Shown: positions 784 through 978 of the stretch, in pieces
Numbering within the stretch: position 1 is the stretch's first letter
Layout: the number at the start of each line of letters is the position of its first letter
Source of the DNA: a virus
Taxonomy: Duplodnaviria; Heunggongvirae; Uroviricota; Caudoviricetes
Strand: one strand, 5' to 3'
DNA: 6,035 nt
IMG/VR virus record: IMGVR_UViG_2547132269_000007
Coordinates: 1-6,035 of that record
Program-made: the position numbers and the translations under genes
The notes under the pieces: generated by a model
What the model was told of the DNA's origin: nothing
The model's input: only the letters and a program-made list of their open reading frames with translations
Database searches by the model: none

Positions 784-978
784 ATGAAAACATCTGATTT
801 TTTTACTGTTCTTGCATGCGGTATCGGAGGGGCTTTGACCGGGCATTTTATCGTGAATATTTTCACTTGGTATCTCTTTGGTTTTAGAGATTATTTCACT
901 CGATGGGTTTTAAATGGTTTTCGTCGGTTTATCGGGTGCAAGCCTGATATGAGAATTTATAAAGATGAAAAGAATTGA
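784..978 (+). CDS. Hypothetical small membrane protein (64 aa), first gene of the AT-rich island
   Basis: ATG at 784 preceded by GAGGA at 770-774 (9-nt spacer). Product has one long hydrophobic segment (FFTVLACGIGGALTGHFIVNIFTWYLFGF) and a basic C-terminal tail. No homolog recognised. Confidence 0.45.
   Translation: MKTSDFFTVLACGIGGALTGHFIVNIFTWYLFGFRDYFTRWVLNGFRRFIGCKPDMRIYKDEKN

Follow-up and report, generated by a model that had tools for sequence, protein, structure and literature searches.

What does a 64-codon open reading frame (ORF) do between ninE and ninG of a lambdoid prophage, and with which gene, if any, does it work? The question is raised by positions 1 to 6,035 of IMG/VR virus record IMGVR_UViG_2547132269_000007 (the window, by which we mean this whole stretch of 6035 bases), the nin region of a lambdoid prophage of Escherichia albertii, whose contig is on record as GCA_000208425.2 AEJU01000101.1 (L100). 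Both the exact 64-aa protein (P0016) and the exact product of the 590-aa gene that faces it are annotated in E. albertii assemblies. An earlier note, made from the sequence alone, had placed the small ORF in a moron with a possible tie to the 590-aa gene. The evidence presented here points elsewhere: relatives of the small ORF are paired tail-to-tail with the gene of the antiphage defence protein PD-Lambda-6, and the window carries one half of such a pair, the other half having been exchanged for unrelated DNA.

The ORF runs on the + strand from an ATG at 784 to a TGA at 978 and encodes MKTSDFFTVLACGIGGALTGHFIVNIFTWYLFGFRDYFTRWVLNGFRRFIGCKPDMRIYKDEKN (64 aa). A GAGGA Shine-Dalgarno (SD) motif lies at 770-774 (+; read from the sequence and from a table of SD motifs and starts), with 9-nt spacing to the ATG, and the leader 5' of the ORF occupies 712-783 (+; delimited by blastn of window 712-972 against L047/L056 and by alignment). 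The product has a single hydrophobic stretch, the best 19-aa Kyte-Doolittle window covering residues 6-24 (mean 1.75), so that it is described as a single-pass membrane protein with a transmembrane (TM) segment at about residues 6-29, followed by an amphipathic and basic C-terminal part; residues 35-64 contain 8 K/R against 4 D/E, and the isoelectric point is 9.4. AlphaFold2, run on a 7-sequence alignment, returned a long helix at 3-49 and a short helix at 56-63 with moderate confidence (mean predicted local distance difference test score 71). By the positive-inside rule, the basic tail is probably cytoplasmic. The gene is convergent with the 590-aa gene (1150-2922, - strand) across a 171-nt spacer and lies at the left edge of a low-GC island, where the G+C content, 0.51 in Dam/NinE, drops to 0.36 across the small ORF, 0.28 in the spacer and 0.35 in the 590-aa gene. 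The descriptive part of the earlier note, namely the ORF with its ribosome-binding site, the one helix, the basic tail, the convergence and the position in the island, is thus borne out. Since the window holds 54 ORFs of at least 30 aa, a length of 64 codons is by itself unremarkable.

Relatives of the 64-aa protein match it over the full length with 57-95% identity (E = 1e-30 to 1e-39) and come from E. coli, Salmonella, Citrobacter, Trabulsiella and E. albertii. The family is narrow and confined to enterobacterial prophages, and when 1.8 billion cluster representatives were searched exhaustively with a profile, only the family itself was recovered. The 64-aa protein has no match in Pfam, NCBIfam, PHROGs, PADLOC or the PDB sequences; in Pfam, no family was found for the window protein at E values up to 10, nor any holin family for any of seven members. 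A 'DUF2149' source label carried by one cluster member was not reproduced.

Outside the island that carries the 590-aa gene, every member of the family stands tail-to-tail with a 131-aa gene, the two stop codons being 4 nt apart, or 11 nt in Trabulsiella and 6 nt in E. albertii. The 131-aa partner is a full-length match to PD-Lambda-6 in PADLOC (model PDLC04020, E = 1.2e-87) and to phrog_36733. The pair was found in five positions. In Salmonella prophages (L037-40) it comes directly after cro, and in L044/45 a pRha-like gene precedes it. Rac-like prophages of E. coli carry it behind ydaS-ydaT, and 17 of 5426 complete E. coli genomes have it there. In a Citrobacter telavivensis prophage integrated at icd, and in relatives of this prophage, it again follows cro. 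In Trabulsiella guamensis (L055 4001-4838) it lies within the head-gene cluster, 3' of the major capsid gene. In all five, the small gene is co-directional with the phage operon and PD-Lambda-6 is opposed to it. The small gene follows a phage lytic-operon gene in line at a distance of 20-140 nt, except that in Trabulsiella its GTG start overlaps the stop codon of the preceding 82-aa late-operon ORF. PD-Lambda-6 is under very strong purifying selection in these modules (omega 0.02-0.06) at a synonymous divergence that mostly reaches dS 0.9-2.6, and an intact small ORF was present at every PD-Lambda-6 locus examined except the E. albertii remnant described below, where it is a pseudogene. The occurrence of the pair in five positions across such deep synonymous divergence indicates an old linkage that has outlasted repeated moves.

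PD-Lambda-6 (published as PD-λ-6) was recovered by functional selection against lambda-vir and is a validated anti-lambda gene (Vassallo et al. 2022, Nat Microbiol, PMC9519451). It was given there as one hypothetical protein of strain UMB6655 (Supplementary Table 2), for which the HHpred table lists only weak matches over an N-terminal TM helix (PMC9519451). Each of the two convergent genes therefore encodes one TM helix, N-terminal in the case of PD-Lambda-6. The protective clone, RRUL01000001 425952-426863, extends about 257 bp beyond the 397-bp gene at either end, and it protected E. coli without the phage operon promoter (PMC9519451). These flanks are long enough that the clone probably holds the whole small ORF with its SD motif, in which case the two genes were not separated. 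Catalogues treat PD-Lambda-6 as a one-gene system, and no conserved companion gene is mentioned in the original paper or in the PADLOC model consulted.

The small ORF is a genuine protein-coding gene, and its family is under purifying selection. Among five alleles, the variable columns are distributed over codon positions 1, 2 and 3 as 12/5/26, dN/dS is 0.13-0.26 in the ORF frame versus 1.2 and 1.5 in the other two frames, and the comparison of synonymous with nonsynonymous changes gives Fisher p values of 2e-6 to 4e-3. Across seven members (alignment A3), 28 columns are invariant. The TM segment is best conserved, with 15 of its 22 positions invariant, including G13, G15, G16, G20, H21, N25, T28 and W29, and the invariant glycines form a GxxxG-type motif. 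In each of the independent and unrelated upstream contexts, an SD-like motif and a start codon give a product of 64 aa (61 in Trabulsiella), and the N-terminal codons vary between contexts yet stay in frame. It might be argued that the stretch is conserved as RNA or DNA, serving as a 3' untranslated region or terminator of PD-Lambda-6 or as an antisense target: with 4 nt between the two stops, each transcript must end within the other gene, and no PD-Lambda-6 terminator was found between the convergent genes. The codon-level pattern largely refutes this idea, which we regard as very improbable, because the third-position bias and the low dN/dS are seen in the ORF frame only, the SD-like motif and the start are kept in unrelated upstream sequences, and the frame is kept where the N-terminal codons change with context.

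Automated annotation of the family is uneven. The Prokaryotic Genome Annotation Pipeline (PGAP) calls the small ORF in some Rac-like E. coli prophages (WP_135247427.1, 64 aa, GTG start) and omits it in others that match the same probe at 99.7% DNA identity, as a comparison of a called copy (L057 5046-5240) with an uncalled one (L058 1546-1740) makes plain. This inconsistency illustrates how small ORFs come to be overlooked.

The ORF of the window fits the family in its full-length homology, its length of about 64 aa, its SD-like motif and its co-direction with the phage operon (3' of ninE), and departs from it in adjacency, its convergent neighbour being the unrelated 590-aa gene, 171 nt off. 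Nucleotide similarity to the PD-Lambda-6 modules (blastn against L037, L044, L046, L049 and L054) spans the ORF and ends at position 983, 5 nt past its stop, where the PD-Lambda-6 stop codon follows in those modules; positions 979-983 are the last bases in common. PD-Lambda-6 is absent from the window by tblastn, and neither tblastn nor blastn revealed a remnant of it in 979-1150; the window therefore lacks the 131-aa protein that defines the system. On the left side, the leader from about 712 together with the ORF shares 92-94% nucleotide identity with a prophage remnant next to icd in E. albertii, which does carry PD-Lambda-6, and homology of the backbone (ninE-ninF type) to other lambdoid phages ends at about 690, with E. 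coli matches that reach ninF covering only 640-690. Judged from these end-points, what lies between about 691 and 983 once formed the left half of a module of small ORF and PD-Lambda-6. The end of homology at 983 and the absence of PD-Lambda-6 from the window mark a cargo swap, in which PD-Lambda-6 was replaced by an unrelated low-GC cassette, consisting of the 590-aa gene and a hairpin, leaving the small gene as an orphan. For the window itself this is a modest finding, that of an orphaned half of a module which can probably still be translated.

The translatable state of the orphan depends on a homopolymer. A run of seven T residues at 798-804 (+), in codons D5-F6-F7, is in frame (T7), and its shortening to six (T6) is a -1 frameshift that brings a stop after 17 codons and reads MKTSDFLLFLHAVQEGL-stop. 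Of 5426 complete E. coli genomes, 251 carry the 590-aa island, which comprises NinE, the small-ORF stretch, the 590-aa gene, an HNH gene and NinG; most of them belong to Shiga toxin-producing (STEC) and enteropathogenic E. coli serogroups. The island also occurs in Shiga toxin 1 phages such as SH2026Stx1 and AU6Stx1. An 80-nt probe for T6 matched exactly in 233 of the 251 genomes; in the five that were sampled from the remaining 18, each differs from the probe by substitution and not by an indel, and the corresponding 80-nt probe for T7 had zero exact matches among complete E. coli genomes. It appears that all 251 carry T6, as do 35 of 35 IMG/VR island contigs and 4 metagenome contigs. In the loci examined, the 590-aa gene is generally intact in T6 islands, and PGAP leaves the small ORF unannotated in the E. 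coli island copies. The small ORF is a pseudogene in nearly all of these copies.

In E. albertii, an identical and intact 64-aa protein is encoded on 14 contigs of this species type from at least 10 assemblies, the window's own included, and on all 14 the small ORF adjoins an intact 590-aa gene; CP030787.2 and CP070281.2, both complete chromosomes of E. albertii, are among the 14. A second intact allele (P0001) is rare and belongs to an E. coli-type island, and one such assembly looks error-prone. Conservation in homologous islands, on which the earlier note had staked the reality of the ORF, is therefore divided: it is lost in E. coli through T6 and kept only on the E. albertii contigs. The in-frame state is ancestral: the other family members read GAY TTT TTT ACT, or variants of it, in frame. 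T6 and T7 both occur in each sub-lineage of the island (the window against L076, and L041-43 against the E. coli majority), and the tract has changed length more than once.

Two other explanations of the tract were considered and set aside. A sequencing or assembly error was suspected since the window's closest IMG/VR relative, L076, which is 99.0% identical over 4245 bases, with a 99.8% identical 590-aa protein, has T6 and is one base shorter also at two intergenic homopolymers, 2969-2974 (A6) and 3363-3369 (G7). An error at T7 is rejected because the same protein, without a difference, is encoded on the 14 contigs, which come from at least 10 assemblies, and because none of seven long homopolymers within established genes differs between the window and L076. 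The A6 tract at 2969-2974 is, as a separate observation, one base longer than in most other relatives too. The second candidate, a designed switch for phase variation, was rejected in view of the codons that family members show at the position of the tract (GAC TTT TTT, GAC ATT CCC, GAT CTT TTT and GAC ATT TTA), the tract itself not being conserved across the family.

The frameshifts also bear on the relation of the small gene to its present neighbour. As the small ORF is frameshifted in E. coli islands while the 590-aa gene stays intact, the 590-aa gene does not need it, and the functional tie suggested by the earlier note falls away. A related view is that the small ORF encodes an autonomous membrane protein (a superinfection-exclusion factor, a holin or antiholin-like protein or a small toxin), acting alone or with the 590-aa gene. 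The single TM helix with its polar residues (H21, N25 and T28) and basic tail would suit such a protein, as would its place in a low-GC island, and a convergent neighbour could provide antisense control in the manner of type I toxin-antitoxin systems. Against this stand, besides the loss of the frame in essentially all E. coli island copies, the restriction of the family to loci beside PD-Lambda-6 or in the 590-aa island, the absence of any family match in Pfam, NCBIfam, PHROGs or PADLOC, and a position that never adjoins lysis genes. We consider an autonomous function of this kind improbable. The small ORF does share the composition of a moron, with a G+C content of 0.36 against 0.51 in the phage backbone. 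The label is not warranted on this evidence. A crude consensus scan found no sigma-70-like promoter in 600-783 for expression in the lysogen, + strand matches occurring only within or after the small ORF. Given its common orientation with, and its position closely behind, lytic-operon genes in all its contexts, including the start overlap in Trabulsiella, we read it as part of the phage operon instead of as a lysogen-expressed moron.

The dependence between the small gene and PD-Lambda-6 is indicated by what happens when the pair is broken, since either gene then decays. A degraded prophage remnant next to icd (L047, L056, L066-L073, L104-L108), which appears widespread in E. albertii, carries a small ORF with the same 2-nt deletion in 5 of 5 aligned copies. 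In this remnant, PD-Lambda-6 has an omega of 0.10-0.12, raised about threefold, with some 15-20 extra nonsynonymous changes. In E. albertii, PD-Lambda-6 is intact (131 aa) on about 72 contigs and truncated on about 86, and the truncations are of at least four kinds (123, 121, 83 and 59 aa), several of them independent. In E. coli, where the orphan is frameshifted, PD-Lambda-6 is rare, being confined to the 17 of 5426 complete genomes mentioned above.

These data can be read in two ways as far as the role of the small protein is concerned. One is that it is an obligate second component of PD-Lambda-6 defence, whether as a cofactor, a membrane effector or a sensor, and that the copy in the window has no function. 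The tight and deep linkage of the two genes speaks for this, as does their mutual decay, with T6 in the E. coli islands on one side and, on the other, the raised omega and the truncations of PD-Lambda-6 beside the 2-nt deletion; the flanks of the validated clone, moreover, could hold the whole small ORF and its SD motif. A defence cofactor would, however, be expected to be made in the lysogen, whereas the small gene lies in line with repressed lytic operons, lacks a promoter of its own and, in Trabulsiella, is translationally coupled to a late gene. The arrangement of the two genes is convergent and not operonic, and the persistence of an intact, identical copy on 14 E. albertii contigs is not what one would expect of a cofactor without its partner. 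We judge an obligate cofactor unlikely, while granting it a real chance.

The other reading, which we favour tentatively and at rather less than an even chance, is that the small protein antagonises PD-Lambda-6 in the membrane during the lytic phase, or confers self-immunity against it. It is suggested by the opposed orientations, the small gene being read with the lytic operons and PD-Lambda-6 against them. The 64-aa protein would insert in the inner membrane with its N-terminus out and its C-terminus in, and would be made only while lytic transcripts are on, here those from pR through the nin region; this restriction is proposed because no promoter-like site was found for the gene alone and because the operons in which it sits, or to which it is coupled, are switched off in the lysogen. 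PD-Lambda-6, read in the opposite direction, would be a defence expressed in the lysogen. Once made, the small protein may neutralise PD-Lambda-6, probably through helix-helix contact between conserved TM segments rich in small residues, and the phage that carries the pair would thereby be spared from aborting its own lytic growth. A phage that has the small gene and lacks PD-Lambda-6 could then deploy it as a counter-defence in PD-Lambda-6-positive hosts, and the orphan would have decayed through T6 where PD-Lambda-6 is rare (E. coli) and stayed intact where chromosomal PD-Lambda-6 is common (E. albertii). The protection given by the clone without the phage operon promoter fits an antagonist and speaks against an obligate cofactor, and the contrast between an intact orphan in E. 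albertii and a frameshifted one in E. coli fits an antagonist as well. More doubtful is the specific form of this reading, in which the small protein would be a dedicated intramembrane inhibitor of PD-Lambda-6 that confers self-immunity in the module and acts as a stand-alone counter-defence in the E. albertii prophage.

Several observations weigh against an antagonist. The case for the mechanism is built from gene order, orientation and patterns of decay. Co-occurrence of an intact orphan with an intact chromosomal PD-Lambda-6 is unsupported at the level of strains: the island strains that could be checked, the OM363_ assemblies and CP030787.2, carry a broken PD-Lambda-6 in the form of the 59-aa fragment, so that the association holds at the species level only. 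A neutral founder effect could account for T6 in E. coli as against T7 in E. albertii, and the closest IMG/VR relative of the window, L076, itself has T6. In E. albertii, where PD-Lambda-6 decayed once the small ORF was lost, an obligate two-component system accounts for the pattern equally well or better, and the PD-Lambda-6 clone, which probably includes the small ORF, is compatible with a cofactor role. Furthermore, the lineage of the 590-aa island shows 2 synonymous and 3 nonsynonymous differences, with a dN/dS of 0.38, which are too few to be informative about selection.

This last point, together with the occurrence of T6 and T7 in both sub-lineages of the island and the broken PD-Lambda-6 of the window-type island strains that were checked, would also suit the view that the ORF of the window is a mere relic, the flank of a former PD-Lambda-6 module that has travelled with the 590-aa island, has stayed intact in E. 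albertii by chance and is no longer under selection. The identical and intact protein on 14 contigs from at least 10 assemblies, behind a good SD motif, argues otherwise, and we think it unlikely that the ORF is such a relic. The relic view concerns present-day function alone and is compatible with the conclusions reached for the family.

The remainder of the window shows the surroundings of the small ORF. The end of a Dam-type methylase gene (to 466) is followed by NinE (463-645), on the same strand as the small ORF. A 174-codon ORF at 73-597 on the - strand, antisense to Dam/NinE, is annotated as a gene in some source annotations (L095 and L100) and is probably spurious. Downstream of the small ORF, folding revealed a compound hairpin at 1054-1119, with arms at 1057-1065/1108-1116 and 1073-1082/1096-1105, about 30 nt past the stop of the 590-aa gene. 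Its folding z score is -4.55 on the - strand and -1.26 on the + strand, and it probably terminates transcription of the 590-aa gene and keeps the convergent transcripts apart. The hairpin is part of the 590-aa cassette and not of the small-ORF module. It is the only such structure found, as a crude consensus scan detected no canonical T-run terminator around the small ORF.

The 590-aa low-GC cargo gene matches phrog_9230 only; its product has no match in Pfam, NCBIfam, PADLOC or the PDB and no hydrophobic or TM segment. Its first 120 residues are 37% Ser/Thr/Asn, and it contains two copies of the motif LTLNDFLDN (at residues 52 and 77). The hosts listed for it are in many cases E. albertii or STEC of serogroups O157, O145, O111, O26 and O103, which are attaching-effacing pathogens. 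In view of these features, a secreted effector is a possibility for the 590-aa protein. Between the upstream region of this gene and the HNH gene lies a TATTTC hexamer microsatellite of 10.8 copies (3248-3312), which differs by two units between the window and L076. An endonuclease gene with HNH_3 and AP2 domains follows at 3508-4074 (+) and shares its last 26 nt with the start of ninG; it resembles a nin-region insertion of the homing-endonuclease type. NinG (4049-4651), the antiterminator Q (4695-5183) and genes for tRNA-Asn(GTT) and tRNA-Gly(TCC), called by ARAGORN within 5275-5508, complete the region. A third tRNA-like sequence lies between the two tRNA genes at about 5353-5430 and has no ARAGORN call.

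Taken as a family, the small gene matters chiefly for what it says about PD-Lambda-6, a validated defence protein with no recognisable domain beyond its TM helix, to which it would add a concrete second player, be it an immunity factor or a cofactor. A small and usually unannotated gene has been kept 4-11 nt from PD-Lambda-6 although the pair has moved at least five times and its synonymous sites have diverged deeply. If it acts on PD-Lambda-6, the outcome would be either a prophage defence with cognate immunity or a redefinition of PD-Lambda-6 as a two-gene system. If the intramembrane inhibitor proposed above were real, PD-Lambda-6 would be the first membrane-anchored defence protein of a prophage with a separately encoded, convergent protein antidote, and the T6/T7 tract would record the loss of this antidote in a species, E. 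coli, in which its target is rare. The ORF of the window is in turn to be read as the orphaned half of a module and not as the partner of the 590-aa gene.

Comparison with known systems places the small protein outside the classes first proposed for it. With holins and antiholins it shares the unspecific features of a small phage membrane protein with at least one TM helix and a charged C-terminus. It differs in lying outside the lysis cassette, between ninE and ninG and upstream of Q in the window and elsewhere after cro or ydaT or among head genes, and in having a single TM helix; given its wrong location and the lack of a holin-family match, it is not a holin. The superinfection-exclusion proteins SieA, SieB, Imm, Sp and Cor offer no closer parallel, as no match to the small protein was found in PADLOC, PHROGs, Pfam or NCBIfam and the small gene runs in line with lytic operons. 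The type I toxins (Hok, TisB, Ldr and Ibs) are likewise small, hydrophobic peptides of one helix whose transcript is overlapped by an antisense RNA, and in PD-Lambda-6 modules the convergent neighbour of the small ORF is 4 nt away, so that the transcripts must overlap. The 64-aa protein differs from them by its 30-residue basic tail, by a partner that is protein-coding and not a small RNA, and by the lack of homology. PD-Lambda-6 itself is by definition a single gene, with one protein and one PADLOC hidden Markov model, so that the small ORF falls outside it, and the window, having no PD-Lambda-6 gene, does not contain the system; the homologues of the small ORF stand 4-11 nt from that gene, tail-to-tail, in five independent prophage positions.

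The sieB gene of phage P22 is a further point of reference. Its product Esc is an in-frame internal product of sieB, and Ranade and Poteete in 1993 reportedly traced escape to this shorter product, whose expression is switched by antisense RNA. Esc differs from the small protein in that it is not a separate convergent gene, and there is no homology between them. The gene sieB is expressed from the prophage and aborts superinfecting relatives while sparing P22 (PMC10883804); P22 has thus solved for SieB the difficulty supposed here for PD-Lambda-6. Another precedent is BstA, a prophage abortive-infection protein with cognate self-immunity through aba (Owen et al. 2021, PMC8585504). The aba determinant is a 63-bp DNA element that overlaps the start of bstA and acts as DNA, whereas the candidate described here would be a separately translated 64-aa membrane protein encoded on the opposite strand, with no sequence relationship. 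The problem to be solved is the same as the one proposed here for PD-Lambda-6, and in both cases the immunity determinant, which in the present case remains a candidate, sits at the locus of the prophage defence gene.

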